64,000 nucleotides of DNA from an uncultured Verrucomicrobiota bacterium (GCA_937872095.1 CALMNW010000034.1:20107-84106), one strand, 5' to 3'. Shown: positions 45,749 to 64,000, numbered from the stretch's first letter. Program-made: numbers and translations. Notes: generated by a model not told the origin, from the sequence alone.

Positions 45749-45759
45749 GAGGCGAAAAC

Positions 45760-48065: not shown

Positions 48066-48068
48066 GAC

Positions 48069-49001: not shown

Positions 49002-49027
49002 AAGACTGAACAAATTCCAGAACATTT

Positions 49028-49060
49028 AGGCGGCTTTTTACAAGCCGCCATTTTTGTTGT
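49028..49060 (+). terminator. Rho-independent terminator
   Basis: ggcggcttt-ttac-aagccgcc stem-loop followed by atttttgttg, directly after the 48069..49001 stop. Confidence 0.55.
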
Positions 49061-49260
49061 CCGGCGCGGTATGGGCAATAATCACGCGTAGTACTGACAC
49101 CTTTCCCGGATAATTAGCGGTCAGGATCGCTGAACATTTTGAGGCATTCGAATTTTTGCGCTTGTCGGCATCGTGTTTCCTGTTCATCGCGCGGCACGAA
49201 AGGTCAGCAGTTGAGCTGACTGGGCAGGTCGCTACACCGAAAGGTGGGAAGGCGGAATAG

Positions 49261-49470
49261 ATGACTACGAAGGAAACGGCGACGACGAGACTGAATGGAT
49301 GGACGCGGATCGGCGGGGTGCTGGAGCAGGTTCCGGTGAGCAAGCGGACACTTCTGCGTTGGCAGGCGCAAGGTCGAATCCCGGTTACAAAAGTAGGGCG
49401 CGTGACCCTGTACCGGCTGTCCGACATCGAGAAGATGTTGAGCAAGTTGACCGTCCGGGCCATTGGATAA
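49261..49470 (+). CDS. AlpA/excisionase-family helix-turn-helix DNA-binding protein
   Basis: 69 aa. LEQVPVSKRTLLRWQAQGRIPVTKVGRVTLYRLSDIEKML matches the HTH_17/excisionase pattern (...RTLyRwi..G.lP..k.G.r..yr..dl...l). A GGA-rich RBS lies 8 nt upstream. Confidence 0.6.
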   Translation: MTTKETATTRLNGWTRIGGVLEQVPVSKRTLLRWQAQGRIPVTKVGRVTLYRLSDIEKMLSKLTVRAIG

Positions 49471-49629
49471 GGAGGCGACCATGCGCAAGCTCAACAAAAC
49501 GGCCACCACCGTGTCACCGATGGCGGCCAGCAAGATCAACAAATCGGTGTATAGCACGGCGCCGGCGAGTTGCTCAAGCAAATCCGCCACAATGACGATA
49601 TCCGCGGCGGCGGAAGAGGGGAGGCAGAT

Positions 49630-52149
49630 GTGAGCCTAAACCGTTCCCTGCTCGAGAACGTGAAGACCGCCAACGGCAAAACCACTGCGCGCTGCCCGGC
49701 TTGCAAGGAGAGCGGTTGCGACGAGGGCGGCGATCACCTGGTGATATATCCGGACGGCCGGTACGGATGCGCCGTGAATCCTGGCGACAAAGTACACACT
49801 AAGCGGATCTTCGAACTGGTGGGCGCTAACAACGAGCCGTCAGCGCAGCACCCCGGTCGAAAGAGCGGCATGGTGTATTCAACCATCGAAGCAGCTACAT
49901 CTGCGGCGCGACGGTTCGTGGAAAAGAAAACCGAAGAATCATGGAAGTGGATCCGGACCGATGTATACAGGAGCGCGACAGGCGAACCTGTGGCCGCCGT
50001 CCTGCGCTTCGATCGTGCAGACGGGGCAACCGAGGATAACGGAAAACCCATCAAGACATATAGGCCGGTTCACGTGGTTGACGGTGGCTGGCAGTTGGGA
50101 GATCCCCCGGGCTTGCTGCCGCTGTTCAACCTGCCGGCGATCGTCAATTCCGACGGCATCATTCATATCAACGAGGGCGAGAAGGCTGCCATGGCGGGCA
50201 CGGCGCTTGGCCTGACTTCCACCACCTCCATGCACGGCGCCAAGTCGGCGGCCAAGACCGACTACGCTCCGCTGAAAGATCGAGACGTGGTGATTCACCC
50301 GGACAACGACCGAAAAGGCCGCGAGTACGCTGAAGATGTGGCGGCCCGCGCATATGCCGCCGGGGCCGCATCCGTCAAGATCGTCGTCTTGCCCGGTCTA
50401 CCGCCCAAGGGCGACATGGCCGACTACGTAGCCGCAAGGACGGGAATGGGGATGGAATCCGTACGGGCGGAAGTTGTGGCAGTGGCCGATGCGACGGAAG
50501 TGTGGTCTCCGGCCAAGGCGGCCGCCGCTGGTGTAAAACCGACGATCGTTCTTCCCGGCGGCCCACGAACCATCACGGCTGCCGGAGAGGACTTGGGCCG
50601 ACTGTTGGCATCTACTCAAAAGGTCTTCATCCGGGGCGGTGCTCTTGTCACATTAGATGCGGACGGGGATGGGCATCCAATCCTGCGCCAGCTCAAGCCG
50701 GTGGCGTTGGCATCGGTCTTTGAGTCGGTGGCCACCTTGGCGAAAATGACTCAAGGTAGCTTACAACCAGCCATCTGCACCGAGTCAGCGGCCAACTTGA
50801 TCGGGTCATCGGCCGCATTTCGTGATCAAATGCCGTCAATCCGTATTATAACGCGGTGTCCGGTGTTGATTGAGCGCAATGGCAAGTTGCTCCAAATCAC
50901 GGGCTACGACTTGGCGTCTGGCATCATGGCTGGTGGCTGTCCCGTTCCGGATATGACGCTGACCGAGGCCAAGGAGCGGCTCTACGAGCTGCTGCGCGAC
51001 TTCCGGTTCGCCACTCCCGCAGACCGGGCACGCGCTCTAGCGGCACTGATAACGCCGGCAATGGTTTTCGGAGGATTGTTGAAAGGACGGCCACCCATCG
51101 ATCTTGGTGAGGCTGACGATTCGCAGGCAGGGAAGGGGTTTCGGAATAAGATCAAATCCCGCGTATACGGCGAGACAATGCGCTGCATCGCCCAGAAACG
51201 CGACGGAGGGGTGGGCAGCTTGGAGGAGTCGTTCAACGCGGCATTGATTCAAGGGGCGGTGTTCATATGCCTTGAGAATGTTCGCGGCAAGATAGACTCG
51301 CCCGCGATAGAATCGTTCATCACCGAGGATCACTATACGGCCAGATGCGCCTATCACGAGAACGTCGACATCGATCCGCGCCGGGTTTGCTTGTCCATGA
51401 CGTCCAACAAAGCGGACCTGACCACCGATCTGGCGAACCGTTGTGCGTGCGTGAGGATACTCAAACAACCGCAGGGCTACGCGTACGCCCGATATCCAGA
51501 GGGTGACATCCTAGACCACGTGGCGGCGTACCAGGGCCGGTACCTTGGCGCCGTGTTTGCCGTGATCCGGGCTTGGCATGCTGCAGGTTGTTCGCGCACG
51601 GACGAATGTCGCCACGACTTTCGGGCGTGGGCACAGACCATGGATTGGATCGTTCAAAACCTTATGGATGCCGGGCCGTTATTGGACGGCCACCGGGAGA
51701 CTCAGCGGCGGATGACCAATCCGTCCATGAATTGGCTGCGCGACGTAGCGCTTGCTGTCGTCCGTGCTCAGCGGACCGACGAGGGGCTGCGGGCGGGACA
51801 TCTCGTCGACCTACTGGCCGAGGCGGGCGTCGATGTGCCGGGCCTTCCAGAAGGTGGGGATCCGTCAGAACCCAACAACCGGAAGTCGGCACAGCAGGCC
51901 GTTGGCCGCAAGCTGTGGCAATGTTTCCGGAACGAAGATGTGGTGGCGATCGACAGCTTTACCATACGCCGCCAGACCACATACAACCAACAGCACCGAT
52001 CTGAGACCAACGAGTATTGGTTTTCTGCAGCAGGCAATGGGGACGGCGATGGTCCTATAGTCGCAGGGCCCCCAGATTTAACCAAAGAAACCGCCCCGGT
52101 ACTGCTGGTATCGCTTGGGCTTCGGCCCCCAGACGCCAACTGCGGCTAA
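49630..52149 (+). CDS. Bifunctional DNA primase/helicase-like replication protein (Zn-finger, TOPRIM-like, then phage/plasmid P4/D5-type helicase region)
   Basis: GTG at 49630 with a strong RBS gaggggagg 5 nt upstream; the track's alternative start is at 49570. Zn-binding CPACKESGCDEGGDHLVIYPDGRYGC. TOPRIM-like acidic motifs IHINEGEKAAMAGT...VVIHPDNDRKGREYA. A C-terminal ~450-aa region resembles primase-associated D5_N/helicase domains. Confidence 0.6.
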   Translation: MSLNRSLLENVKTANGKTTARCPACKESGCDEGGDHLVIYPDGRYGCAVNPGDKVHTKRIFELVGANNEPSAQHPGRKSGMVYSTIEAATSAARRFVEKKTEESWKWIRTDVYRSATGEPVAAVLRFDRADGATEDNGKPIKTYRPVHVVDGGWQLGDPPGLLPLFNLPAIVNSDGIIHINEGEKAAMAGTALGLTSTTSMHGAKSAAKTDYAPLKDRDVVIHPDNDRKGREYAEDVAARAYAAGAASVKIVVLPGLPPKGDMADYVAARTGMGMESVRAEVVAVADATEVWSPAKAAAAGVKPTIVLPGGPRTITAAGEDLGRLLASTQKVFIRGGALVTLDADGDGHPILRQLKPVALASVFESVATLAKMTQGSLQPAICTESAANLIGSSAAFRDQMPSIRIITRCPVLIERNGKLLQITGYDLASGIMAGGCPVPDMTLTEAKERLYELLRDFRFATPADRARALAALITPAMVFGGLLKGRPPIDLGEADDSQAGKGFRNKIKSRVYGETMRCIAQKRDGGVGSLEESFNAALIQGAVFICLENVRGKIDSPAIESFITEDHYTARCAYHENVDIDPRRVCLSMTSNKADLTTDLANRCACVRILKQPQGYAYARYPEGDILDHVAAYQGRYLGAVFAVIRAWHAAGCSRTDECRHDFRAWAQTMDWIVQNLMDAGPLLDGHRETQRRMTNPSMNWLRDVALAVVRAQRTDEGLRAGHLVDLLAEAGVDVPGLPEGGDPSEPNNRKSAQQAVGRKLWQCFRNEDVVAIDSFTIRRQTTYNQQHRSETNEYWFSAAGNGDGDGPIVAGPPDLTKETAPVLLVSLGLRPPDANCG

Positions 52150-52225
52150 GAAAACGCTTAACTGCCGCTGATCTGCGGCTAATCCTGCGGCTAAGAAAAC
52201 CCCCTTTGCGGCTAATGCGGCTGAA
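52141..52225 (+). repeat. Iteron-like direct repeats (at least 4 copies of TGCGGCTAA) overlapping the stop of the primase/helicase gene; candidate replication-origin repeats
   Basis: ctgcggctaag (52140), ctgcggctaatc (52173), ctgcggctaag (52185) and ttgcggctaatgcggctgaag (52206), plus the degenerate ctgccgctga (52161). Spacing is 12-33 nt. Confidence 0.5.
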
Positions 52226-53066
52226 GGTCCCCTATAGCGGATAATACAGGTTGAAAACATGAATGCTCACGCATTGAATTACTCAATGCTATGTCTACTA
52301 TTATCTTCTATGGGGGGTATTAGCCGCATAGCCGCAGAAGGCCGGAGCTCAAGCCGGCAGAACGCCTGCTGTGCCGGTACCGCAGATTGCCCATGTGGGC
52401 GAACAGCCCGCGGACGAAAATGGGGTGACGAAGTAGATCGGCAGCTATTGGGTTCGTTCCATAGTGGTGTTGGTGCCTCGCCGACGAAAAAACGCATGTG
52501 ATGTTGGTGCCCCGTCGGCTCGGATTTTGCCGGGTCGGCCGGCCTTTATATCGGGGCGAAAACAGGTGGATCGGCGGGTGTTTTCGGGGGCACCCCCAGA
52601 AGGTGTGTCCCCGGTGGGGAACGGTCGCAATGTATTCGAGCGCTTTGGCGTTGCCGAACTTCGAGGGGAGGACGTTTCTACGGCGATGACCGTCGTATCG
52701 TCTTTTCGCCGAGGTGGATGCACGGCCATGTTGCCGAATGTATTCCAAAAAATTCCTAGAGGCGCCCCGGGGCATAGAGATAGATAACAAGCGATTAACG
52801 CGGAAAAAATAAGCACGATTTCGGCGTCGGGCCCCTAACTAAAGCATGGAACGCGTTCCACAACTGAATATCGCCGCCCGGGAGCGGCATATTAATAGGG
52901 TGCGGTAACTGTCCGCTCGACGCCGACTTTCCCGCCGTACCCTGCCGCCTTCCCGGCGGTCAAATCCCACCCCCAAAACCCCGGAGCCACAATGTACTTT
53001 TTCATCCTGATAGCGTTTCTGTTTTTACTTCTGCGCTTTGGCAGTTGGTAGCCAGGAGGAAAACTG

Positions 53067-53639
53067 ATGAAATCCTTCAACATCTTCCTGACCATCGTTG
53101 TACTCACCGTCGGAGCCGCTCTAGCCGTCTATCTCGCCGGCTGCCACAAGCAGGTAGTCCGTGCCGTCACTATTTCCGTTATGAAGCAAATTCCTCAAGC
53201 ATGGTTGATCCTGCAGACCGACGAAGAACTGACTGTCGCGACCATCGACGGCGGAAATCTCCTTTTCGGTCCCCGGTCCGGAATGGCATCGGCCGTTCGA
53301 AGATCGCATTGGGGACTCAACCTGGAACTGATCGTCGACGAGGACATCGTGGTCTCAGGACGCGAGGTACGCATCAAGCTGCCGGATCCAGCAGTCTTCG
53401 ACACGGTGGTCGACATGTCCACATTCCGCTATTTGACGCGTCGCAGTGGTTTCCACGCTTTGGGTGACGTTTTATGGGGTCGGTCGTTGTTCAGTGAATT
53501 GGCCGAGATCGCCTGCCAGACGCCGCCCAAGTACAGCCGGGAGCAGATCCAGGCACGGCGGTCGGACTTCATCCTACGACTGAACGAGCAGGCGGCATCG
53601 CTGTTCGCGGCGAAAGATCTGGTTGTTCGATTCGAGTAG
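53067..53639 (+). CDS. Hypothetical protein with an N-terminal signal/anchor helix
   Basis: RBS aggagg 9 nt upstream. MKSFNIFLTIVVLTVGAALAVYLAGC resembles a signal peptide or lipobox (LAGC). 190 aa. Confidence 0.45.
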   Translation: MKSFNIFLTIVVLTVGAALAVYLAGCHKQVVRAVTISVMKQIPQAWLILQTDEELTVATIDGGNLLFGPRSGMASAVRRSHWGLNLELIVDEDIVVSGREVRIKLPDPAVFDTVVDMSTFRYLTRRSGFHALGDVLWGRSLFSELAEIACQTPPKYSREQIQARRSDFILRLNEQAASLFAAKDLVVRFE

Positions 53640-53835
53640 GCGGTAACCATGCCTCAATCGTTTCGATACCCGTGGCCAAGTTCCGCGATCGATCCCGGCT
53701 TGATGCGACGGTTGTACCTGGCGCGCGAAAGCTCGCCTACGCCCACGACCATCACCCGACTCATTGCCGAAGCCGTGCGCGCCGCCTATGGCCAGTCCAA
53801 TCCCCAACCTGAAACCCAACCACCCAAGGAGTCCA

Positions 53836-55248
53836 ATGAAACTGTTGCTACCCCGTTCCGAACTGAAGGAAGCGCTGACCGGCCTGTCCAAGGTCATCAA
53901 CCAGCGCGCCAGCATCCCGATCCTGGCCTGCGTGCGGCTTGACGCCGAAGGCCAGACCGTCCTCCTGACGGGCACGTCCATCGATCAGACCGCCAGCTAT
54001 GCGATCACCGTCGCCGAGCCCGTGCCTGCGCCTATCGCGGTCCTGATTTCCATTGCCGAGCTGCAGGCTGTCCTGAAGACGGCGCAGGGGCCCGACATCG
54101 AGATCGAGCCCGGCAAGGACGCCGTGACGATCACCGCCACCGTTGCCGGGCAGGGGATCGGGCGTCGCATCGAGACCCCGGACATCCAAGACTGGCCGGA
54201 GCTGGCCACGCCCGCCGACACCAAATCCGTCGAGCTCGGCTTCTTGGCCAGCTTGCGACGGGTGCTGGCGTTCGCTTCTCCGGACGATTCCCGACCGCTC
54301 TTGAAAGCCGCGTATTTGGATGTGTCCGCCAAGGCCGGCCACCGGATCGTGGCGACCGACAGCCGGAGGCTGACCGTCCTGCCCTGCGGGATCCTGCCGC
54401 TGGCCGAGTCGGTGATCGTCCCGTCCACCAAGTTTTTGAATTGGTCCAAGCTGGAAGGGGAGACCCGGATCGGCGCGGGCAAGGGCGTCTTTACGCTCCG
54501 GTGTGGGCCCTGGACCTATACCGCCAAGACGGTGGAAGGCCAGTATCCGCGCTGGAGCCAGGTCGTGCCCGCCTACGGGGGTGACCGGACGCTGGAGCTC
54601 TCCGAGGCCGATGCAGCGATGCTCATCAAGGCCATGCCGGGCCTGCCGACCTACGACAGCAGCCACGAGGCCGTCGTGCTGTGCATGGAGGGCAACGCCG
54701 TCCGGGTGTTCTCCCGGCAGGACGCCAAGAGCCCCGAGAGCGCCGTCCGGCTTGAATCCAGCCAGTACGAGGGGAAGGGTGCCTTCTCCGTCGGCCTGAA
54801 CCGGGAGTTCTTCCGGGATGCGCTGCAGGCCGGGTTCCGCTACTGGGAGTTTCAGGATGCCGTGAGCCCGCTTCTCGGCCGCCTGTCCAAGGACGACAAG
54901 GCCAGCATCCACGTCCTGATGCCCATCCGCACGATCGACGCCGAGGTACAAAAGGCCGAAGCCAAAGCCCCGGAGGCCAAGCCCACCCCCGTTCCCGTTC
55001 AACCCCAACCCAAGGAGATCCCCATGCCAAAGAAACACGAAGAAGTCCAACCCGCGGTCGAACCCGGGGCTCTGGACAAGATCCTGGTCGCCTACGAGTC
55101 CGCGAAGAACGCGGTGCGCCAGGCGCAGTCCGCGCTGGCCGACGTGGCGCTCTGCGTCCGCGACGCCATCCGCGAACAGAAGGCGCAGAGCCGCGAAATC
55201 GCGGAAGTCCGCGCCGGCCTGGCCAAGCTCCAGACCATCCGGGTGTAG
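53836..55248 (+). CDS. DNA polymerase III beta-subunit (sliding clamp, DnaN) homologue with a C-terminal Pro-rich linker and coiled-coil extension
   Basis: RBS aaggag 6 nt upstream. N-terminus MKLLLPRSELKEALTGLSKVINQRASIPILACVRLDAEGQTVLLTGTSIDQ follows the DnaN domain-I pattern (MKF...R..L...L..v...v.....lPiL..vll.a..g.l.l.atDle). Three ~110-aa repeats of the clamp fold, then AKAPEAKPTPVPVQPQPKEIPMPKK and a helical tail. Confidence 0.55.
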   Translation: MKLLLPRSELKEALTGLSKVINQRASIPILACVRLDAEGQTVLLTGTSIDQTASYAITVAEPVPAPIAVLISIAELQAVLKTAQGPDIEIEPGKDAVTITATVAGQGIGRRIETPDIQDWPELATPADTKSVELGFLASLRRVLAFASPDDSRPLLKAAYLDVSAKAGHRIVATDSRRLTVLPCGILPLAESVIVPSTKFLNWSKLEGETRIGAGKGVFTLRCGPWTYTAKTVEGQYPRWSQVVPAYGGDRTLELSEADAAMLIKAMPGLPTYDSSHEAVVLCMEGNAVRVFSRQDAKSPESAVRLESSQYEGKGAFSVGLNREFFRDALQAGFRYWEFQDAVSPLLGRLSKDDKASIHVLMPIRTIDAEVQKAEAKAPEAKPTPVPVQPQPKEIPMPKKHEEVQPAVEPGALDKILVAYESAKNAVRQAQSALADVALCVRDAIREQKAQSREIAEVRAGLAKLQTIRV

Positions 55249-55287
55249 ACCCGGTAAATCGCAAAAAGTAATTCGCTGTCACCAAAG

Positions 55288-55325
55288 GCCGTCGGGGTCA
55301 ACACCCGGCGGCCTTTTCCATTTTC
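55288..55325 (+). terminator. Rho-independent terminator candidate
   Basis: ggccgtcgggg-tcaacac-cccggcggcc hairpin followed by ttttccattttcg, 40 nt after the clamp stop. Confidence 0.35.
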
Positions 55326-55367
55326 GATTTAACTAAACAAACAACAAACCAACCCCAAGGAGATCAT

Positions 55368-55601
55368 ATGCATCCATTCGTCGTACTGCTCGCCATTGGA
55401 ACCGCGCTCGCTCATGACACTGGCAGGCGCCTGGAGATGCCCGTCGTGGCGCCCAACCGGCTCGAAGCCGTCTGCATCGCCGAACGTAACGGCAACGTCA
55501 TCGTTGCGGACGACGAGTACGTCTATGCCAAGTCGGTGCGGCCGGTCCATACCAGCCACTTCACCTTCACGCCGCCCTCGGGGCTGGCCGTGGCCGTCTA
55601 G
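55368..55601 (+). CDS. Hypothetical small protein (77 aa)
   Basis: Strong RBS aaggagatcat before the ATG. The product has a hydrophobic N-terminus and no domain match. Confidence 0.4.
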   Translation: MHPFVVLLAIGTALAHDTGRRLEMPVVAPNRLEAVCIAERNGNVIVADDEYVYAKSVRPVHTSHFTFTPPSGLAVAV

Positions 55602-55659
55602 GCTGGCGTAGGCCGCGAAAACCACTAAGCCCCGGAGGCGAAAGCGCCGGGGCATCCCT

Positions 55660-56163
55660 TTGAAACAAAACGAACAGGAGAATGAATCCATGAGCGTGAA
55701 TCTTGAAATGTCCTACGCGAAAAAAGTTGGGTTGCCCGAATACTCGAGCCACAATTTCAGCGTCTCGCTGAAGACCGAGGTGGCCCGCCTCGAAGACGTG
55801 TCCGGCGAAGTCGAACGGGTCTACCGGCTTCTTCAGACGGCGGTGGACGAGCAAATCGTCAACCCCGGCTTTGTCCCCGGCCACGAGCAGTCGGCACCCG
55901 CACCCAAGAACGGTGTCGACGACAGCAAGCCCTGGAAGTGCTCGGACAAGCAGAAGGCGCTGATCCTCAAGGTCGTCGCCGAGAACAAGCTCGACCGCGT
56001 CGAAGTGGAGCAACTGGCCGTCACCCGGTTCGGGCACGGCGTCGCCCTGCTTAACAAGCTGGAGGCTTCGGGGCTCATCGACGAGTTGCTGGGCAAAACC
56101 GGTCGCTCGTCGGCGAAGAAGGCCGGCGCCTTCCGCCCCTTCGAGCAGCGGAGGGCGGCGTGA
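55660..56163 (+). CDS. Hypothetical protein (167 aa)
   Basis: ORF with an acidic N-terminus. An alternative ATG at 55690 has a better RBS (caggagaatgaatcc). Confidence 0.4.
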   Translation: MKQNEQENESMSVNLEMSYAKKVGLPEYSSHNFSVSLKTEVARLEDVSGEVERVYRLLQTAVDEQIVNPGFVPGHEQSAPAPKNGVDDSKPWKCSDKQKALILKVVAENKLDRVEVEQLAVTRFGHGVALLNKLEASGLIDELLGKTGRSSAKKAGAFRPFEQRRAA

Positions 56164-57011
56164 GCGCCCAGGCGGCCGTTTTCCACAGCGGGTCGCTCGA
56201 CGAATCCAAGCCCGGCGATCCGTTGGCGTACATCAGCGCTTCGAGATTGAAGTCGTTCCTGACCTGCCGACTTCGGTTCTTTTACGAAAAAGTTTTGGGA
56301 CTGAAAGCGCCGGCGTCCCCGGCGCTCCAGATCGGCAAGGCGGTCCACGCGGGCTTGCAGCATTTCAACCTGGCTCGCTGGCGGGGTGGGGACACTTCGC
56401 CGGCCGCCACGCTGCAGGCGTACGACAAAGCCTACGGAGAATTGGAAGTCCAGGGTCCGGTGGATTACGAGGGCAAGGATCGCACGGAGTGCATCGACAC
56501 GGGACAGCGCGTGCTGGATGCCTATCTGGGCTCCGATCTGGCCAGCGATCCGCGGCGGATCTTGGGCGTGGAAGCCTATCTTCGCCGAGAAGAGGGGTTG
56601 CCGCTGCCGCTGGTCGGCGTCCTGGACTTGGTGCTCGAAGGCAACGTGCCGGTGGATTTCAAGACGGTGGCCTCCACGCCCGTCCTTGAAGACGAAGCCT
56701 GGCAAAACGAACTCCAGCTCACCGCCTATCACCTGCTGATGCAAGACGCGACGGGCGAGGAGCCGGGTCAGGGGGAGTTGGTTTACCTGACGAAAACGAA
56801 GGCCCCGAAGATCGTCAAACAGGTGTTGCCGCCCGTGACCCAGGTGCAGATCGACCGCCTAAAGGCGCTGATCGACGTTTACGCCGATGGTGTTAGCCGG
56901 GAGGACTACCACCCCTCACCGGGAATGTCGTGCCGCTGGTGTTCGTATAGGACGCAGTGTGCGGCATGGGCCGGGTCCAAGGTCCGGAAGGCTGTCGGCA
57001 TGGCCGCATGA
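56160..57011 (+). CDS. PD-(D/E)XK nuclease, Cas4/RecB-exonuclease-like, with a C-terminal Cys cluster
   Basis: GTG start overlapping the upstream stop. Motifs VGVLDLVLEGNVPVDFKT (D...D/E-x-K core) and a terminal CRWCSYRTQC, plus an earlier Cys (FLTCRL), resemble the Cas4/AddB-type Fe-S nuclease arrangement. Confidence 0.5.
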   Translation: MSAQAAVFHSGSLDESKPGDPLAYISASRLKSFLTCRLRFFYEKVLGLKAPASPALQIGKAVHAGLQHFNLARWRGGDTSPAATLQAYDKAYGELEVQGPVDYEGKDRTECIDTGQRVLDAYLGSDLASDPRRILGVEAYLRREEGLPLPLVGVLDLVLEGNVPVDFKTVASTPVLEDEAWQNELQLTAYHLLMQDATGEEPGQGELVYLTKTKAPKIVKQVLPPVTQVQIDRLKALIDVYADGVSREDYHPSPGMSCRWCSYRTQCAAWAGSKVRKAVGMAA

Positions 57012-57271
57012 GCCGGTTCATCCGCATCAAAACGCCCGGCGAGCTGTTGGACATGATCAAAAGGAAGCCCTTGCGTTTCCTGATCCTGCTCAACTACGGC
57101 GGCGAGAGCTCGAAGCAGATCGGCTACGACCGGCGCCGCCGGGTGTTCAAGGTCCGCAACCTGATCGACGGCAGCCGGCAGGAGCTGACCTGCGCCCAGC
57201 TTATGGGCCCGAAGCATAGCAACATCGGCCCGGCAATGCGCGGCGGCGCGTTCTTTGCCGAAGTGGCCTGA
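57008..57271 (+). CDS. Hypothetical small protein
   Basis: ATGA overlap with the nuclease gene. 87 aa; no domain match. Confidence 0.35.
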   Translation: MSRFIRIKTPGELLDMIKRKPLRFLILLNYGGESSKQIGYDRRRRVFKVRNLIDGSRQELTCAQLMGPKHSNIGPAMRGGAFFAEVA

Positions 57272-57309
57272 CCCCGATCCCGACAACCATCAAACGAAAG
57301 GAGGGCAAT

Positions 57310-58044
57310 ATGCCCGTATGTAACTTGTGTCTTCATTGCGGGGCGGCTCAAGTCCCGCGCGCGGCCTTGGCGGCCGTGCCAACGCCCGCGGCCACCGAAA
57401 CCTGGAGGCCGATTCCTCACGAGGAGTATGTTCGCCAGGTCGAATGGGAGCTGCCACGCTACGGCCTCGACATTGTCGCCGAAGCGCACGCGCTGACGCA
57501 CGACTCGTCGAGGTACTTCGGCTTGATCCAGGTCCAGAACGGGTGCAATAGCCCTGACTATTCCTGGGTCTTGGGCTTGCGTAACTCCCATGACAAAACG
57601 CTGACGGCCGGTCTGGTCGCCGGCAGCCAGGTGTTCGTGTGCGACAACCTGGCTTTTTCGGGTGAGGTGAGCGTCAGCCGGAAGCACACGGTCAACATCC
57701 TGGAAGACCTGCCCGGCCTGGTCGGCGGCGCTCTCGGGCGACTTCTGCTGATGTTCAAGTCGCAGGACCAGCGCGTCGAACGCTACCGGGCAACCCGCCT
57801 GAGCGAGCCCGATGTGCACGACCTGACGATCCGGGCATTGGATTCGGGCGTCGTCTGTGCTTCCAAGATCCCCGAAGTGCTGAAGGAATGGCGAGAGCCT
57901 CGCTACCGTGAGTTCGAGCCCCGCACGGTCTGGAGCTGGTTCAACGGCGTGACGGAGACGGCCAAGGGTGCGCTGCATTTGTTGCCGCGCCGGACCCAGG
58001 CCCTTTACCGGCTGTGCGACGACTTCGTCGGCGTCGCTGCCTGA
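57310..58044 (+). CDS. Hypothetical phage/plasmid-like protein (244 aa)
   Basis: RBS aaggaggg 6 nt upstream. No confident family assignment. Confidence 0.4.
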   Translation: MPVCNLCLHCGAAQVPRAALAAVPTPAATETWRPIPHEEYVRQVEWELPRYGLDIVAEAHALTHDSSRYFGLIQVQNGCNSPDYSWVLGLRNSHDKTLTAGLVAGSQVFVCDNLAFSGEVSVSRKHTVNILEDLPGLVGGALGRLLLMFKSQDQRVERYRATRLSEPDVHDLTIRALDSGVVCASKIPEVLKEWREPRYREFEPRTVWSWFNGVTETAKGALHLLPRRTQALYRLCDDFVGVAA

Positions 58045-58141
58045 ATGTCAACCGTAGCCGTGGAGGACCGCCAACTCCACGGCATTCTTGTCGGATGAAA
58101 GGTAAGGAGACCGTGATGGCCGGCAAATATCGAGGTGAAAA

Positions 58142-58369
58142 GTGACAAGGAAACGAATCAAGGACAGCGAGCTGCCGCGCTCGCCCCAGTTCCACTTGAA
58201 GCGCTACGACAAGCTGGTGGGCAAAACGCTGACCGGCGTCTGCGTGGACCGGTCAGACGGCAGTGGCGACCCGGTGATCGGCCTGGTGTTTGGCGGGACG
58301 GTCGCCTGGATCCTGTGCGACGAAGAAGGCAACGGGCCCGGCGTCCTCGACATCGAAGGGCCGAAATGA
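58142..58369 (+). CDS. Hypothetical small protein (75 aa)
   Basis: ORF in the small-gene series 58.1-59.3 kb, several of which overlap their neighbour's stop. This gene lies 95 nt after the 57310..58044 stop. Confidence 0.3.
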   Translation: MTRKRIKDSELPRSPQFHLKRYDKLVGKTLTGVCVDRSDGSGDPVIGLVFGGTVAWILCDEEGNGPGVLDIEGPK

Positions 58370-58632
58370 GCAGGAAACGCCTCATCGCCGAACAGCGACT
58401 GGAAGTGATCCGGCGCGTCGCCGATTGGTGCTACGCCAATACGCAAAGCTGGGCGCCGGACCGGATTGGGCTGGGGCTGGCCTACCTGTTCTGGGCGATA
58501 GCGTCCGACGACGGCCAGCCATTCGACACAACCATCGGGCCGAAGGATGAGTACGCCGAACTGGTGAAGCTTCTGAAGTCCAATCCGAACGGGCTGTGGG
58601 ACGAACTGCGAGCTTGCGGAGCGATTGTGTAA
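58366..58632 (+). CDS. Hypothetical small protein (88 aa)
   Basis: ATGA overlap with the upstream gene. The long ORF 58135..58632 is an extension. Confidence 0.3.
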   Translation: MSRKRLIAEQRLEVIRRVADWCYANTQSWAPDRIGLGLAYLFWAIASDDGQPFDTTIGPKDEYAELVKLLKSNPNGLWDELRACGAIV

Positions 58633-58654
58633 ACCAACCACCGAAAGGAAGACC

Positions 58655-59023
58655 ATGCGCTACACGGAGACGACGACGATACGCTGCAGCCGGACGATGC
58701 CGATAGCCGAGTTCATTCAGACGAACGAGCTGGTGAGTGAACAGGCAGGGTCCGAGGGGGCTCTGGACTGGCTGGCCAGACAATTCCTGCCGGATGCGGC
58801 GATGAACGAGCCGTATGACGCATGGATTGCCCGGCAGGCGATCTCCATCCTGCCCACGACCTTGCTACGGGATACGGTGAATGGCTCGTCCCACATTGCC
58901 CGGAAGATCGCCGGCGTGCAGATCTCGCCCGCGGACAAGACGTGGCTGTTCCAGATCCTGGGCCATCACCCGGCGATGCTCGCCGTGTGGCGGTCCATGG
59001 TACAGGAAGCCATCGCGGCCTGA
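58655..59023 (+). CDS. Hypothetical protein (122 aa)
   Basis: RBS aaggaag 7 nt upstream of the internal ATG of ORF 58625..59023. Confidence 0.35.
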   Translation: MRYTETTTIRCSRTMPIAEFIQTNELVSEQAGSEGALDWLARQFLPDAAMNEPYDAWIARQAISILPTTLLRDTVNGSSHIARKIAGVQISPADKTWLFQILGHHPAMLAVWRSMVQEAIAA

Positions 59024-59091
59024 ACCAAACAATAAGCCGCCGGCGGAGTTCCAATCTCCCCGGCGGCAATTCTTTTACATGGAGGACCATA

Positions 59092-59316
59092 ATGCTGATA
59101 ACGCGAACGAGCATGATTTCCGGCAAGACCCATACAATGGAAGTCGATTGCACGGAAGAACAGCTTGCACGGTGGCATGCGGGTGAGAGAATCCAAGACT
59201 GCATGCCGGGCGTGCCGGCGCCGTTACGGGAATTTATGATGACGGGCACGACGCCGAAAGAATGGCGTCAGATGTTTGGCCGTCCGCCACGGATGCCTCG
59301 GCGCAGGCGGTCGTAG
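59092..59316 (+). CDS. Hypothetical small protein (74 aa)
   Basis: RBS ggagga 7 nt upstream. The product MLITRTSMISGKTHTMEVDCTEEQLARWHAGERIQDC contains Cys pairs. Confidence 0.35.
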   Translation: MLITRTSMISGKTHTMEVDCTEEQLARWHAGERIQDCMPGVPAPLREFMMTGTTPKEWRQMFGRPPRMPRRRRS

Positions 59317-59415
59317 GGGCAGGGCCGCCTTGTCGGGGGAGGGCTGCGGGATGACCGCGGCCCTTTTGTTAGCTATCGGCGGTTGGTATAGCAACGGCAG
59401 GCCAAGCCGAGTAGG

Positions 59416-59724
59416 ATGAGCCTAGTTGCCGTGCCCGACAAAGAAACCAGTCTAGCTCCTGAACCAGCCGAGTGGCCGATAGACGGCACGCTCGACCTGC
59501 ACCTGTTTCAGGCTAAAGATGTAGGCGATCTGATGCCGGGGTATCTGGCCGAGTGCCGCAAGCGGGGCATTCTGCAGGTCCGGATCGTGCACGGCAAGGG
59601 GACGGGACAGCTGCGGGAACGGGTGCACGCCGTCCTGCGGAAGCTGCCGGAGGTGGCTGGGTTTGGCATGGCGACGGAAGCGATGAGAGGGTGGGGGGCG
59701 ACGGTGGTGGAGATGAAACCTTGA
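59416..59724 (+). CDS. Smr (small MutS-related) domain protein
   Basis: LDLHLFQAKDVGDLMPGYLAECRKRGILQVRIVHGKGTGQLRERVHAVLRKLPEV matches the Smr pattern (LDLHG...eA...l..fl.....g...vriIhGkGtG.Lr..v...L). Confidence 0.6.
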   Translation: MSLVAVPDKETSLAPEPAEWPIDGTLDLHLFQAKDVGDLMPGYLAECRKRGILQVRIVHGKGTGQLRERVHAVLRKLPEVAGFGMATEAMRGWGATVVEMKP

Positions 59725-59998
59725 TAATCATGTGCCAAATGGTGCGTCAGAGGTGCGGGTAGACCGATTCACTAATATCCTAATAATCTCAATTATATAT
59801 CTATCGACTTGCTCGGTACAGGTGCATAAAATCCAGATTCGTCAAAGTGAATCGTCCAACTGGCATCGTTGGTTTGCGTCCGGAGAAGCCTTTATGTCTA
59901 GCAGTTGGCCTAGGAGGGTTCCGTGGAATCAGCTTTTATTCATATTGGGCGGGGCATTGTGTCAATCTGCATCAACGGGAGTGGGAAAGAGTGAAGCC
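59725..59998 (+). promoter_or_regulatory. AT-rich non-coding region upstream of the giant C1-peptidase gene
   Basis: The stretch 59760-59880 is below 40% GC (ctaatatcctaataatctcaattatatatctatcgacttgc). No ORF. RBS gggaaagag precedes the ATG at 59999. Confidence 0.3.
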
Positions 59999-62900
59999 AT
60001 GAAAAATGACACAACCCGATCATGTTCCGAGTCGATTACAAATCGGCGAGCCTTCGGTTGTAGCGGGCGAATTCATCGTGGCAGCCCAAATATACCGAGT
60101 GGAGGAAGAACGGTAGCGGCTATTTTTGTGGCGCTTGTGGAGTTTATCCTAACCGGTGCGGCCGGAACATGCTTCGCAGGATCAGCTCAGTTTGCGCCGC
60201 TCAACCCGGAATTCATCGACTACCAGCGGAGAGCGCAGGCTGATCAGCCGTCCGTGCGCGCTGAAGAGGGCGAGGAACTCCTGGGATATGTTCCGGCCTC
60301 TGTTAGCATCACGGCCATGGCCGGCACTAATCGCTTCAAGAAGGCAATGCCTCGCTCATTTCCTGCAACCTACGATCTAAGACAATCGGGGCGTCTTACT
60401 CCTGTCAAGGACCAGATAATTTCTGGCCCATGCTGGGCTTTCGCTGCCGTTGCGTCCCTCGAATCCTGTCTCACGCTTGAAGGGTCCAGCGACTTTTCAG
60501 AGAAGAACCTGGCCAATCTTCACGGGTGGGACTGGAGCCCAACCAATGGGGGGAATGGAATATTGGCGACCGCATACCTGTGCCGATGGGACGGCCCCGT
60601 CAATGAATCCGATGATCCTTACCCTGCCGGTGCGTGGCAAAGCAGTCTGCCCGGGCTGCCTGTCCAGAAGCACGTTCAGCAAGTCCGTATGATTTTCGGC
60701 AAGTCCAGTCCCACCGACAACGACGCCATCAAACAAGCGCTGACCGACTATGGCGCTGTCTTTGCCTCCTATTACCATGCGAACAGCTACTACAGCTCGG
60801 TCAACTCCGCCTATTACTATTCTGGGGCCAACAATGGCAACCATGGTGTTGCCATTGTCGGGTGGAATGACAATTTTGACCGCACGCGCTTTCCGGTGGC
60901 TGCCCCGTCCAACGGAGCCTACATCGTCAAGAACAGTTGGGGTACTGGGTGGGGCGATGCCGGATATTTCTATGTGTCATATTATGACACCAAATTTGCC
61001 CATGAAGACATGTTTGTATTTATGAACGCTGAACCCGTTGGCAACTACATGAAATGCTACCAATACGATCCGCTGGGATGGATCAGCTCTTTCAGGCAAC
61101 CATGGGCGGCGGCGATTTATACGGCCAGCGCATCGGAACCTCTTCAGGCGGTGGGCTTTTATTCTGCACAAGCGGCTAGCTACGAACTATACGTCTACAC
61201 TAATGTCGAAGCCGGAGCCCCTCGAAGCGGCACGCTTGCAAGCAGCATATCTGGCACTTTGCCGTCCGCAGGTTTCCACACGGTTTCACTGGCCGCGCCC
61301 GCCGCATTGGTGGCGGGACAGCGGTTTTCGATTGTTTTACGGCTGATAAACGGTGGCGATTATCCCCAGGCAATTGAATATGCATATAGCGGCCTAACCA
61401 GCGCGGCCACCGCCGCCCCCGGGCAGACCTTCTATAGCTCCGATGGCTCCCAATTCACCGATCTGACGGCACTTGAGTCGACAGCCAATTTTTGCATCAA
61501 AGGCTATACTGGTACAGATACGACTCCCCCGGGGGAGCCCACAATTTCGTCGACGACCCACCCGGACGAGAACGCCTGGTATGCCAATGGCAACCCGTCG
61601 TTTACCTGGACCACGCCATCCGACGCGGGCGGGATAGGCGGGTATAGTTATGTTCTGGACGGTTTGGCCACGACGATTCCGGACACCACGGCGGACGCGG
61701 CGGGGAATACAAAAACCTATTCAAGCATTCCCGACGGAACATGGTATTTCCATGTGCGGGCCAAGGACAATGCCGGCAACTGGGGCACGGTGGATCACTA
61801 TCGAGTGCAGATCGACAAAACAGCACCGACTTTCGGCAGCGTCGCGGTCAGTCCGACTCCGGCCAAACAGGGTGCGGCGGTTTCGATCACGTTCACGGCG
61901 TCCGAGACCCTGGCGGCCAATCCGACCGTAACGGTCAACAGCCACGCGGCGAGTTACAGCAGCAAGTCTGGGAATAACTACACGTACAGCTACACGGTCC
62001 TGTCGTCGGATTCCGACGGCGCCGCGGCAATCGCGATCTCCGGCGCGGACCGAGCGGGAAACGCCGGTTCGGGCAGCAGCACCTCGGCCCTGACCGTGGA
62101 CAAGACGCCGCCGACATGCGCCATCGTTCGCAACGACCCAAATCCGACGTCGGCTTCGACCGTGCATTTCAATGTGAACTTTAGCGAGAACGTGACAGGT
62201 TTTGTTCAGGCCGACGTCGATCTGACCGGCACAGCGCCCGGGAAGAGCATCACGGGCTTCAGCGGGGGGCCGCAAAACTTCGTCGTGACCGTCTCGGACA
62301 TCGGCGGAAGCGGGACCGTGGCGGTCGATGTGGACGCCGGCAAGTGCACAGACGCGGCGGGCAATCCCAACACGGTGGGCGCGGCAGCGAGCTACACAAT
62401 CGATCAGGGCGAAGTCGGCGTGACGATTACCCAGTCCGACGAAAGCACGGCGGTGACCGAGGGGGGAAGTTCCGACACCTATACGGTGGTTCTCAAGACG
62501 CAGCCGTCTGCAAATGTTGCCGTGACGGTCAGCCCGGGAAGCCAGTTGTCGGCATCGCCGACGACGCTGCCCTTCATTCCCGGCCAGTGGAACGTCGCCC
62601 AGACGGTCACGGTGAGCGCCGTGAACGACGCGCTATACGAAGGCCCGCACTCTGCAACGATTACGCATAGCGCCGCCAGCAGCGACGGCAACTATAACGG
62701 CATTCCTGTGACCAGCGTGGCGGTGACGATCACCGACAACGATGCTCCTCCGACGGTCCGCTTCGCTGCGGCGACCCAGTCCAAAGCCGAAAATAGCGGG
62801 ACGGCCTTGGTCACGGCGGAGCTTTCGGCTGTTTCCGGTCTGGCAGCCACAGTGCCGTTCACGCTATCGGGGTCGGCGTCGAACGGAGCAGACTTCACGG

Positions 62901-64000
62901 TAACGGCCAGCCCGATCATCATTGCCGCGGGCAGCACGAATGGAACCGCGACGATCACAATCGCCAACGATGCGCTGGACGAAGACGACGAGACGGTCGT
63001 CGTGACCATGGGCGTGCCGGCAAACGCAACCCAAGGGGCTACGATCGTCCACACGCTGACGATCACGGACGACGATGCGGCGCCCACGGTGGCTTTCACT
63101 TCCGGCAGCCAGACTAAGGGCGAGGGCGGCGGAACCGTGGCGGTTACGGCGCAACTCTCGACGGTGTCCTGCAAGAACATAAGCGTGCCGTTCACGGTAT
63201 CGGGGTCGGCAACAAACGGAGCTGACTATTCGATCACGGCCAGTCCGATCAACATCCCTGCAGGAAACGCCACCGGGAGCGCAACAATCACCATTGTTGA
63301 CGATGCTTTGACCGAGAGCAACGAGGCGGTCATCGTGACGATCGGAACGCCGGAGAACGCAACCAAAGGAACTCCGTCCGTCCACACGTTGACCATCACC
63401 GACAACGACACGCAGAGTCTGGTGGTGTCGCCGGCAGTTCTCAGCGTGCCAGAAGGTGGCACAGCGAGTTTTTCGTTGTGCCTAGCTAAGCAGCCTCAGT
63501 CAAGCGTGGCGGTAACGACCACTCGGATTAGCGGCGATACGGACCTCAGCGTCAGCGCTGGTGGGACGATCACCTTCAATTCCGAGGATTGGAATACGCC
63601 CAAAAACATAACGATTGTCGCGGCCCTAGACGAGGACGATATAAGCGGTAGCGCGGTCTTTGCTGTCTCATCGCCCGGGTTGACCACGGTCAATGTAACT
63701 GCAATCGAAGCCGACAAGGATGCAGAGCATCTCTGGATGATATATGTCGATGCAAGCCGCCCCGACGACAATGGAGATGGCTATTCGTGGGCAACGGCCA
63801 AGAAGACAATTCAGGCGGGCATCGACTTGGCAGCCGACGGAATGACGGTGCTGGTGACCAATGGCCTTAACAACATCGGCGGCCGGGTCACGCCAGGATA
63901 TACGCTCTCTAACCGGGTTGTCATTACCAAGGCCATCACCGTGCGCAGCGTCAACGGGCCTGAAGCAACAATAATTGAAGGCTCCGGGACGAATGCATAT
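59999..64000 (+). CDS. Giant secreted surface protein, 3' end beyond the window: C1 (papain-like) cysteine peptidase domain, Ig-like domains, at least 3 Calx-beta repeats, pectate-lyase-like beta-helix start
   Basis: Absent from the ORF track because it has no in-window stop. My translation of the frame containing 59999 is stop-free for more than 1330 codons. Signal/anchor VAAIFVALVEFILTGAAGTCFA. Papain active-site motifs DQIISGPCWAFAAVASLES (Cys), NHGVAIVGWNDN (His) and YIVKNSWGTGWGDAGYFYVSY (Asn/Trp). Calx-beta units VRFAAATQSKAENSGTALVTAELSAVS...VVVTMG, three copies. Terminal LWMIYVDASRPDDNGDGYSWATAKKTIQAGIDLAADGMTVLV is beta-helix-like. An alternative ATG is at 59894. Confidence 0.7.
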   Translation, partial: MKNDTTRSCSESITNRRAFGCSGRIHRGSPNIPSGGRTVAAIFVALVEFILTGAAGTCFAGSAQFAPLNPEFIDYQRRAQADQPSVRAEEGEELLGYVPASVSITAMAGTNRFKKAMPRSFPATYDLRQSGRLTPVKDQIISGPCWAFAAVASLESCLTLEGSSDFSEKNLANLHGWDWSPTNGGNGILATAYLCRWDGPVNESDDPYPAGAWQSSLPGLPVQKHVQQVRMIFGKSSPTDNDAIKQALTDYGAVFASYYHANSYYSSVNSAYYYSGANNGNHGVAIVGWNDNFDRTRFPVAAPSNGAYIVKNSWGTGWGDAGYFYVSYYDTKFAHEDMFVFMNAEPVGNYMKCYQYDPLGWISSFRQPWAAAIYTASASEPLQAVGFYSAQAASYELYVYTNVEAGAPRSGTLASSISGTLPSAGFHTVSLAAPAALVAGQRFSIVLRLINGGDYPQAIEYAYSGLTSAATAAPGQTFYSSDGSQFTDLTALESTANFCIKGYTGTDTTPPGEPTISSTTHPDENAWYANGNPSFTWTTPSDAGGIGGYSYVLDGLATTIPDTTADAAGNTKTYSSIPDGTWYFHVRAKDNAGNWGTVDHYRVQIDKTAPTFGSVAVSPTPAKQGAAVSITFTASETLAANPTVTVNSHAASYSSKSGNNYTYSYTVLSSDSDGAAAIAISGADRAGNAGSGSSTSALTVDKTPPTCAIVRNDPNPTSASTVHFNVNFSENVTGFVQADVDLTGTAPGKSITGFSGGPQNFVVTVSDIGGSGTVAVDVDAGKCTDAAGNPNTVGAAASYTIDQGEVGVTITQSDESTAVTEGGSSDTYTVVLKTQPSANVAVTVSPGSQLSASPTTLPFIPGQWNVAQTVTVSAVNDALYEGPHSATITHSAASSDGNYNGIPVTSVAVTITDNDAPPTVRFAAATQSKAENSGTALVTAELSAVSGLAATVPFTLSGSASNGADFTVTASPIIIAAGSTNGTATITIANDALDEDDETVVVTMGVPANATQGATIVHTLTITDDDAAPTVAFTSGSQTKGEGGGTVAVTAQLSTVSCKNISVPFTVSGSATNGADYSITASPINIPAGNATGSATITIVDDALTESNEAVIVTIGTPENATKGTPSVHTLTITDNDTQSLVVSPAVLSVPEGGTASFSLCLAKQPQSSVAVTTTRISGDTDLSVSAGGTITFNSEDWNTPKNITIVAALDEDDISGSAVFAVSSPGLTTVNVTAIEADKDAEHLWMIYVDASRPDDNGDGYSWATAKKTIQAGIDLAADGMTVLVTNGLNNIGGRVTPGYTLSNRVVITKAITVRSVNGPEATIIEGSGTNAY

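Follow-up and report, generated by a model that had tools for sequence, protein, structure and literature searches.

Results

The window, the whole 64,000-nucleotide stretch of DNA that was analysed, ends inside a very large gene. Translation from an ATG at position 59999 meets no stop before the window end (59999..64000, + strand; 1334 codons), which agrees with the initial annotation of a stop-free frame of more than 4 kb. The same frame has in fact been open since 59717, directly after a TGA at 59714-59716, for a total of 1428 codons. At the per-codon stop probability of 0.036 given by local base composition, an open run of 1428 codons has a chance probability of about 10^-22.6, and among 200 shuffles the longest open run was 126 codons on average and at most 263. 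The ORF listing for this region contains only small out-of-frame ORFs, as had been pointed out; the large ORF is missing because the lister omits ORFs running off either end, so that genes continuing past the window edge escape it.

The gene is represented in public data by protein P0001 (1662 aa), which is 100% identical to residues 231-1334 and continues for 558 aa past the window end. This puts the complete protein at 1892 aa or more, and the window holds the 5' two-thirds or less of the gene. The continuation in P0001 adds a Beta_helix module (PF13229, 31.3 bits versus a cutoff of 25.9), a choice-of-anchor Q domain (NF041518, 29.4 bits versus a cutoff of 25), a Flg_new repeat and, after this repeat, a second beta-helix module that is 53% identical to the first. 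Because the public gene call begins at the internal Met231, it lacks the catalytic cysteine described below. High-GC DNA in the window does yield very long spurious ORFs, one of them a 3866-aa ORF antisense to a gene for a C25-type protease. Taken with the truncated call, this could suggest that the long frame is artefactual, whether as a high-GC shadow ORF, a chimera of the assembly or a pseudogene. However, local GC is just 55-63%, stops are abundant in the remaining five frames of the same stretch (24-78 apiece), and all segments of the frame match protein families in the right order and on the right strand. Moreover, residues 1-230 are 50-57% identical to homologues and include the invariant Gln and Cys, and the identity to P0001 leaves no sign of a frameshift or missed stop. 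We give an artefactual origin of the frame almost no chance, and consider it effectively refuted.

The upstream neighbour of the protease gene encodes a small Smr-domain protein (59416..59724, + strand; PF01713, E 2e-19), in line with the earlier placement of an Smr gene beside the ORF. It is the last gene of an integrase/replication block and is separate from the protease gene. An AT-rich spacer of 274 nt, a possible promoter or 5' UTR, separates the Smr stop from the ATG at 59999 (59725..59998, + strand). Its GC content of 0.46, versus 0.63 for the window, upholds the description of an AT-rich island at this position, whereas the designation of that island as a promoter draws on just two sigma-70-like matches (59760-59787 and 59804-59832, versus 0.5 expected), both weak. 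An Rfam search of the spacer returned no match. The spacer also contains an alternative ATG at 59894 with GGAG 8 nt upstream.

Residues 1-61 (59999..60181, + strand) resemble a signal peptide in hydrophobicity and in position before an APLNPEF motif. The hydrophobic core comprises residues 38-60 (TVAAIFVALVEFILTGAAGTCFA) and follows a long, Arg-rich n-region; cleavage is likely near CFA/GS. A strongly hydrophobic 19-mer occurs in this N-terminal segment alone (Kyte-Doolittle mean up to 2.0), and the segment directly precedes the family-conserved APLNPEF motif, the position where homologues carry short classical signal peptides. The signal or anchor segment foreseen for the product thus corresponds to these residues. 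The true start is uncertain because the n-region is unusually long (37 residues). A propeptide is assigned to residues ~62-121 (60182..60361, + strand) by alignment to the propeptide of Cwp84 from Clostridioides difficile and by two motifs kept family-wide, APLNPEF and G-x-x-P-x-x-V. Within it, P67, P70, G96 and P99 (ORF numbering; P8, P11, G37 and P40 in A1) are invariant in a 34-sequence alignment. Query residues 98-504, which reach into the propeptide region, align with residues 40-467 of Cwp84 (4ci7), an enzyme whose propeptide has a described role (Bradshaw et al. 2014, PMC4089489). In the AF2 model, pLDDT is low in parts of residues 25-57 (propeptide region).

A papain-family (C1A) Peptidase_C1 catalytic domain spans residues 122-328 (60362..60982, + strand; PF00112, 91.3 bits versus a cutoff of 20.7, E 1.2e-25). 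The motifs listed in the initial annotation were found at residues 145 (CWAF), 281 (NHGVAIVGW) and 311 (KNSWG). Gln139 (60413-60415), Cys145 (60431-60433), His282 (60842-60844), Asn312 (60932-60934) and Trp314 (60938-60940), all encoded on the + strand, are invariant in 34 aligned relatives, and the first three align with Gln110, Cys116(Ala) and His262 of Cwp84, which are active-site residues of that enzyme (PMC4089489). The papain motifs consequently fall on catalytic residues in the relatives and in Cwp84 alike, and the proposal of a C1 papain-like peptidase with intact catalytic context stands. An AF2 model of the catalytic head has a pTM of 0.84; part of the protease L-domain is of low confidence (pLDDT <50 at model residues 101-162). 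Foldseek retrieved cathepsins V/S/L/H, Der p 1 and others at E ~1e-10 and TM (target) 0.68-0.74. Papain and cathepsin L-like peptidases (PF00112) share the catalytic fold and the Gln-Cys-His-Asn-Trp constellation with the window protein. They differ in having an ERFNIN-type helical prodomain in cathepsins, rather than the short Cwp84-type propeptide, and the window protein adds a fused lectin-like domain and a giant C-terminal extension.

The region after the protease domain had been called dimerisation-like and is instead a Lectin_like domain (PF18560, 132.5 bits versus a cutoff of 27, E 1.9e-38) at residues 354-504 (61058..61510, + strand), modelled mostly at pLDDT >90. Its position behind the protease domain makes the catalytic head a Cwp84-type module. 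Cwp84 (MEROPS C1A) has the same order of signal peptide, propeptide, cathepsin-L-like C1A domain and PF18560 lectin-like domain, and its entries 4ci7/4d59 are the best PDB sequence matches (E 1e-34, query residues 98-504; identity about 26-28%). They are also the best fold match to the AF2 model, with TM 0.77-0.80 through propeptide, protease and lectin-like domain; the other fold matches span the protease half alone, leaving Cwp84 as the sole solved structure that matches all three parts together. Differences are nevertheless substantial. The window protein retains the papain Asn (KNSWG) where the Cwp84 alignment has Ser (KSSWG), is over twice its length, and belongs to what is probably a diderm bacterium of the PVC group. 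Cwp84, which serves the S-layer of a Gram-positive organism, has three C-terminal CWB2 wall-binding repeats, whereas the window protein has Ig-like, Calx-beta, beta-helix, choice-of-anchor Q and Flg_new modules instead. No CWB2 match was obtained in the 1334 window residues or in the 1662 aa of P0001, both of which end short of the true C-terminus. Given this absence of CWB2 repeats, the S-layer-maturation role of Cwp84 is not simply transferable.

Ig-like domains had been reported beyond the head; there are three of them (61526..62431, + strand), each of which exceeds its cutoff of 27 when scanned alone: residues ~510-612 (Big_13/Y_Y_Y-like; Big_13 33.7 bits), 613-705 (Big_3_3-like; 28.4 bits) and 706-811 (Big_12; 38.4 bits). 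Akin modules are present in homologues P0005, P0006 and P0007. Four Calx-beta-type modules of ~110 residues follow (62432..63733, + strand), delimited by PF03160 (77.8 bits versus a cutoff of 27, in two stretches) and by module alignments. Modules B (residues 923-1032) and C (1033-1142) are canonical tandem duplicates with 57% identity, which are mirrored in the DNA by a 74% identical repeat (62852-63075 and 63185-63408) at 333-nt spacing. Modules A (812-922) and D (1143-1245) are divergent; A is 27-30% identical to B, C and D (E about 1e-7). Calx-beta repeats are therefore present as described, but as two canonical and two divergent modules rather than three. The window closes with residues 1246-1334 (63734..64000, + strand), assigned from the P0001 continuation to the first right-handed beta-helix module as its N-terminal cap; the helix proper would follow past the window end. 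A beta-helix had been predicted to start here, which the Beta_helix match in the P0001 continuation supports; the cap within the window (about 89 residues) has no family match on its own.

Searches returned more than 2400 family proteins at E<=1e-10, named 'C1A family cysteine protease' or 'lectin like domain-containing protein' in their sources, and reference genomes spanning many bacterial and archaeal phyla hold at least 569 loci. Among genomic relatives, the nearest come from Verrucomicrobiota (54%) and Kiritimatiellia (50%), and the closest relative of all is 57% identical over the head alone. Heads of these uncharacterised proteins, including P0002, P0007, P0012 of Methanocella and a protein of Methanosarcina vacuolata plasmid NZ_CP009519, are 40-57% identical to that of the window protein and share its invariant catalytic and propeptide motifs. 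C-terminal to the head, the homologues have highly variable surface-type repeats, among which Calx-beta, Big_12 and Flg_new recur, and their gene neighbours are not conserved. Among the listed matches, the exact module order of the window protein is found only in P0001, the same gene. The protease gene is thus an ordinary addition to a widespread, already-annotated family.

The position next to the Smr gene had raised the possibility that the protease gene is cargo of an integrase-borne, phage-like replicative element ending with Smr and was acquired by horizontal transfer. Directly upstream are genes for a tyrosine integrase, a primase/helicase, a DnaN-like clamp, a PD-(D/E)XK exonuclease, DUF932 and Smr. 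Composition lends this idea some credence: GC3 of the catalytic half (residues 1-520) is 0.59, near the 0.62 of the integrase and below the 0.73-0.84 of host genes (about 0.8), while residues 521-1245 have a GC3 of 0.74. The head module is sometimes extrachromosomal, as on the Methanosarcina vacuolata plasmid (43% identity), is carried by five metagenomic 'Bacteriophage sp.' contigs, and belongs to a group, the prokaryotic C1A peptidases, in which a survey found horizontal transfer to be common (PMC10380794). Against this, a search of 44-64 kb found no att-like direct repeat joining the integrase end to the protease region, and the right-hand boundary of the element falls outside the window. 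The nearest element genes (DnaN-like, PDDEXK and DUF932) have a host-like GC3 of 0.79-0.86, so that composition defines no single continuous island. Homologues of element genes were near 0/80 related loci, the closest homologues P0002 and P0007 reside in unrelated chromosomal neighbourhoods, and the head module was detected in just 5/50,697 phage records and 5/72,556 plasmid records. Of the cargo proposal, then, the atypical composition stands; the repeat, locus and neighbourhood evidence goes the other way, and we judge it unlikely. Slightly less likely still is the specific alternative that the protease is genuine cargo of the integrase-primase-clamp element, or that a resident high-GC3 repeat scaffold recently gained its low-GC3 catalytic head by horizontal transfer. 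If true, self-replicating integrative elements would carry giant surface proteases between PVC-group bacteria.

A related explanation would assign the gene product to the structural proteins of a phage: a beta-helix of the tail-fibre or depolymerase type, with a protease head, from a prophage to which the upstream replication module belongs. Phage depolymerases typically contain beta-helix modules, genes for phage-type replication adjoin, and a few phage-labelled metagenomic contigs encode the head module. These phage matches, however, are short unannotated contigs with <=36% identity, and the great majority of homologues lie on chromosomes of cellular organisms, archaea among them, next to genes that are not of phage type. 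The N-terminus has a putative signal peptide and a propeptide, as in cellular homologues, and no phage structural, packaging or lysis gene was present among the scanned integrase-to-Smr genes. A phage protein is accordingly highly improbable.

Discussion

The gene at 59999 very probably encodes a giant exported papain-family (MEROPS C1A) cysteine endopeptidase with a Cwp84-type head, in which the lectin-like domain is tightly packed. By this prediction, hydrophobic residues 38-60 would direct Sec export and then be cleaved off. [quoted passage not shown] The Cys145/His282 dyad, present and conserved, is predicted to hydrolyse peptide bonds, with Gln139 as the putative oxyanion hole and Asn312 and Trp314 supporting the His. 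The lectin-like domain would form one wall of the cleft and probably aids in substrate or glycan recognition. The following ~1400 or more residues, with three Ig-like, four Calx-beta-type and two beta-helix modules and a Flg_new repeat, may constitute a spacer or binding stalk that binds polymers or keeps the protease at a distance from the cell surface; an anchor would be expected at the C-terminus, though none was seen. The enzyme likely cleaves proteins outside the cell or at the surface of a diderm member of the Verrucomicrobiota/Kiritimatiellia (PVC) lineage, a setting with which the O-antigen ligase and beta-barrel porin-like protein also encoded in the window are in keeping. The cell would in this way either forage on protein or glycoprotein or process surface proteins of its own.

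A narrower version of the latter is that the enzyme is a Cwp84-like maturation protease whose targets are precursors of its own cell's surface or S-layer proteins, not external protein; the C25 protein 20 kb upstream is one of the other giant surface proteins that could be a substrate. Among relatives that share the propeptide, protease and lectin head, Cwp84 alone has been characterised; its substrate is the S-layer precursor SlpA. Envelope and surface genes are also numerous in the window. Nonetheless, the wall-binding repeats of Cwp84 are absent, no SlpA-like S-layer gene was identified nearby, and occurrence of the family in hundreds of unrelated bacteria and archaea, with variable C-termini and no conserved neighbours, better fits a general extracellular protease or adhesin. 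A dedicated maturation role is hence a minority possibility, albeit the least unlikely of the alternatives considered here, and we favor general extracellular or surface proteolysis. The importance of the giant C1A protease gene is modest, and it leaves current understanding unchallenged. Its value lies in a correct gene model, restored for a protease whose public call is truncated, and in the family itself: Cwp84-type heads occur very widely among environmental bacteria and archaea, Cwp84 alone has been studied, and a tractable family member could help define the function of the lectin-like domain.

The protease is the second giant cysteine protease in the window, and the initial annotation was correct in assigning it to a different family from the first: the giant gene at 27242-40120 carries Peptidase_C25 (E 3e-68). 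That gingipain-type protein is also very large, multi-domain and presumably surface-exposed in the same organism, but the catalytic families are unrelated, C25 belonging to clan CD with a caspase-like fold and C1A to clan CA with the papain fold. The repeats differ as well, with SdrD_B, MBG and F5/8 type C in the C25 giant and Ig-like, Calx-beta and beta-helix modules in the C1A protein. The occurrence of two unrelated giant surface cysteine proteases within 35 kb suggests a strongly proteolytic or surface-remodelling lifestyle, which is typical of polymer-degrading PVC bacteria.

Reading frame and gene start

The protease gene at 59999-64000 (+), which runs off the window end, is real and largely as described in the initial annotation. 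Translation from the ATG at 59999 gave 1334 codons and zero stops, in line with the reported frame of more than 4 kb. The open frame begins at 59717, right after a TGA at 59714-59716, and totals 1428 uninterrupted codons. At the local base composition, stop probability is 0.036 per codon and the chance of a 1428-codon run is ~10^-22.6; in 200 shuffled sequences the longest open stretch was 126 codons on average and 263 at most. Six-frame translation placed 24-78 stops in each of the remaining five frames of this stretch. Collinear domain matches and these stop-rich frames dispose of a shadow-ORF or artefactual reading. Independent support for the reading frame is provided by P0001, a public protein from the same gene that is 100% identical over residues 231-1334 (counted from ATG 59999) and then extends 558 residues further. 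The ORF track displays only short out-of-frame ORFs at this locus, as was noted initially, because by design it leaves out ORFs running off the source end, and it is consequently blind at window edges. Elsewhere, a 3866-aa open frame at 27269-38869 (-), antisense to the gene of a giant C25 protein, is a high-GC shadow ORF and not a gene, a warning that ORF length by itself proves nothing in this window.

A by-product of the analysis is a corrected gene start. The public call begins P0001 at an internal ATG (60689, Met231) and so excludes the signal peptide, propeptide and catalytic Cys145. Met231 was rejected as the true start on the grounds that it would remove the catalytic Cys, and most probably reflects a start called wrongly because the 5' region is atypical in composition (GC3 0.59, far under the genome norm). 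The sole strongly hydrophobic segment of the protein, residues 38-60 (TVAAIFVALVEFILTGAAGTCFA), is followed by GSAQF-APLNPEF, and homologues carry a short classical signal peptide directly ahead of a conserved APLNPxF motif. Because the hydrophobic core precedes APLNPEF as signal peptides do in homologues, residues 1-61 are read as a probable signal peptide whose n-region is unusually long and rich in Arg, and residues ~62-121 as a putative propeptide; the segment originally called a signal or anchor is thereby retained, and the protease is predicted to be exported. Within the ORF, no ATG, GTG or TTG follows 59999 before the hydrophobic core is reached, and GTG 60128 and GTG 60137 both lie within the core. 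Upstream, an in-frame ATG at 59894 is preceded at 8 nt by GGAG, a better Shine-Dalgarno sequence than that of 59999, and would add 35 residues (MSSSWPRRVPWNQLLFILGGALCQSAS...); the true start could be this codon instead of 59999. The long n-region also contains a twin-arginine-like motif, TNRRAFG (60038-60058, residues 14-20), 17 residues before the hydrophobic core, a spacing that is non-canonical for Tat signals.

The 274-nt spacer between the Smr gene and the protease gene has 46% GC, versus 63% for the window, and is thus as AT-rich as originally described. As for the promoter in the proposed "AT-rich promoter island", the spacer holds two weak matches of sigma-70-like type where 0.5 would be expected. 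An Rfam search of the region upstream of the protease gave no match at E<=1.

Catalytic head

[quoted passage not shown] Pfam assigned Peptidase_C1 to residues 122-328 (+; 91.3 bits, cutoff 20.7) and Lectin_like (PF18560) to residues 354-504 (+; 132.5 bits, cutoff 27). The best solved relatives are two constructs of Clostridioides difficile Cwp84, 4ci7 and 4d59 (E 1e-34), with alignments spanning the propeptide through the end of the lectin-like domain; ordinary cathepsins align to residues ~120-327 only. The C1A active-site constellation is intact and conserved: Gln139, Cys145, Trp146, His282, Asn312, Ser313 and Trp314 are invariant across an alignment with 33 homologues, and the conserved active-site residues align with Gln110/Cys116/His262 of the Cwp84 active site (PMC4089489). 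The papain-like peptidase and catalytic residues of the initial annotation are therefore upheld. Modelled with AlphaFold2 (mean pLDDT 78.9, pTM 0.84), residues 60-520 retrieved Cwp84 as its top three Foldseek matches in the PDB (E 1.7e-26 to 6.9e-24, TM 0.71-0.80), all lower matches being papain-fold enzymes that cover half of the model only. PF18560 and the Cwp84 sequence and fold matches identify as the lectin-like domain a region first described as dimerisation-like.

Repeat stalk

The head is followed by a lengthy series of repeat domains of extracellular type, all encoded on the forward strand. Ig-like domains, already proposed initially, number three and occupy residues ~510-811 (Big_13, Big_3_3 and Big_12, each above cutoff when the segment was scanned alone). 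Residues 812-1245 comprise four modules of ~110 residues each, delineated with the Calx-beta profile and segment-against-segment BLAST, the latter also defining module relationships. The canonical Calx-beta repeats are modules B (923-1032) and C (1033-1142), with 57% mutual identity, a duplication visible in DNA as a repeat spaced 333 nt; A and D are divergent relatives (27-30% identity). Calx-beta repeats are thus present as annotated, but as two canonical and two divergent copies instead of three. Residues 1246-1334 form a beta-helix cap. The annotated start of a beta-helix corresponds to this cap, whereas the helix proper lies past the window end, and its sequence in P0001 scores above cutoff for both Beta_helix (31.3 bits, cutoff 25.9) and choice-of-anchor Q (29.4 bits, cutoff 25). 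Further on, P0001 contains a Flg_new repeat, succeeded by another beta-helix module that shares 53% identity with the first; P0001 stops inside this second module, probably because its contig ends there. The full protein therefore has at least 1892 aa, and any C-terminal anchor lies beyond the known sequence. Exact DNA searches of genome and metagenome contigs for the 3' end of the gene found nothing, and exact matching of P0001, Smr and the DUF932 protein turned up no protein record.

Genomic context

Kilobases 1-27 of the window hold envelope-polysaccharide genes (Wzy-type ligase, glycosyltransferases, acyltransferase). These are followed by the C25 giant (27242-40120; 4292 aa), with a Peptidase_C25 domain (E 3e-68), 10 SdrD_B repeats, and MBG and F5/8-type-C domains, so that the C1 protease is, as first stated, the second giant cysteine protease here and of another family. 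At 46623-59724 lies a phage-like integrative/replicative block encoding a tyrosine integrase, a 310-aa unknown, a primase/helicase (Toprim), a DnaN-like sliding clamp, a PD-(D/E)XK exonuclease, DUF932, two unknowns and Smr, the last gene, which adjoins the protease gene as described. The block contains no recognisable capsid, tail or lysis gene, and a search of viral contigs with the primase/helicase protein returned zero relatives. Its patchy GC3 (0.50-0.86) suggests a mosaic or old insertion. At the primase gene 3' end, the 16-nt sequence CTGCGGCTAAGAAAAC is present as two identical direct copies (52140-52155 and 52185-52200; 45 nt apart), the first overlapping the final 10 nt of the gene; this repeat could be iteron-like.

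The initial annotation raised the possibility that the protease gene is cargo of this element. Composition is the one observation that speaks for it: GC3 of the catalytic half (0.59) resembles that of the integrase (0.62) and not that of host genes (0.73-0.84), with the repeat stalk at 0.74. More observations weigh against it or are neutral. At 0.79-0.86, GC3 of the element genes nearest the protease is host-like, and composition therefore delimits no single island. No att-type repeat was found in 44-64 kb, where direct repeats are short chance-level matches only; an exact 14-nt repeat, GAAAACATGAATGC, flanks the low-GC integrase-primase segment (45754-45767 and 52253-52266), with ~0.7 such matches expected by chance. 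The window has zero tRNA genes that might serve as an integration target. Homologues of element genes occur at 0 of 80 related loci in reference genomes, and the nearest protease homologues, P0002 and P0007, reside in unrelated chromosomal neighbourhoods, the former beside toxin-deaminase, TonB/ExbBD and HisG genes and the latter beside fatty-acid and glycosyltransferase genes. The head module is rare on sequenced phages, with 5 of 50,697 records, each a short unannotated metagenomic contig, and on plasmids, with 5 of 72,556 records, the best being a Methanosarcina vacuolata plasmid (43%). Membership in the element is unproven and, on balance, we consider it unlikely. Horizontal acquisition of the protease gene is nonetheless plausible, transfer being common among prokaryotic C1A peptidases according to one survey (PMC10380794). 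A phage tail-spike reading of the protein was rejected as unlikely, judging by homologue distribution and neighbourhoods, block gene content and the phage-record search.

Family and predicted role

The head module retrieved >2400 proteins at E<=1e-10, named "C1A family cysteine protease" or "lectin like domain-containing protein" in naming sources, and at least 569 loci in species-representative genomes. Taxa include Verrucomicrobiota, Kiritimatiellia, Thermodesulfobacteriota, Nitrospirota, Acidobacteriota, Aminicenantes, Armatimonadota, Bacillota, Methanosarcina, Methanolinea and Methanoregula. Among the loci listed, identity is highest for an uncultured Verrucomicrobiota bacterium (54%), followed by a Kiritimatiellia bacterium (50%); these relatives, together with porin-like and O-antigen-ligase genes, suggest a diderm PVC-group host. 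C-terminal architectures differ widely across the family. Calx-beta, Big_12 and Flg_new each recur in other members, making the window protein a new permutation of known parts and an ordinary, uncharacterised member of a known, widespread family.

The protease would be exported by Sec as a zymogen, activated by propeptide removal and dependent on Cys145/His282 for catalysis. The lectin-like domain may shape the cleft and bind substrate or glycan, and the long stalk would display the protease from an anchor beyond the known sequence. Its proteolysis may serve either foraging or the processing of the bacterium's own surface proteins. A general protease of the cell surface or extracellular space seems likelier to us than a dedicated S-layer maturase like Cwp84, because the CWB2 repeats of Cwp84 are absent from both the window protein and P0001, and because neighbours are unconserved across the family.

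On the P0002 contig, the protease gene is immediately preceded by two Toxin-deaminase (PF14424) genes (L081 849-2127), which have no equivalent in the window. A common pool of surface-protein modules seems to supply this lineage. The C-terminal discoidin-type module of the C25 giant ("...VIEIRPQQ*") is closely like the P0002 C-terminus.
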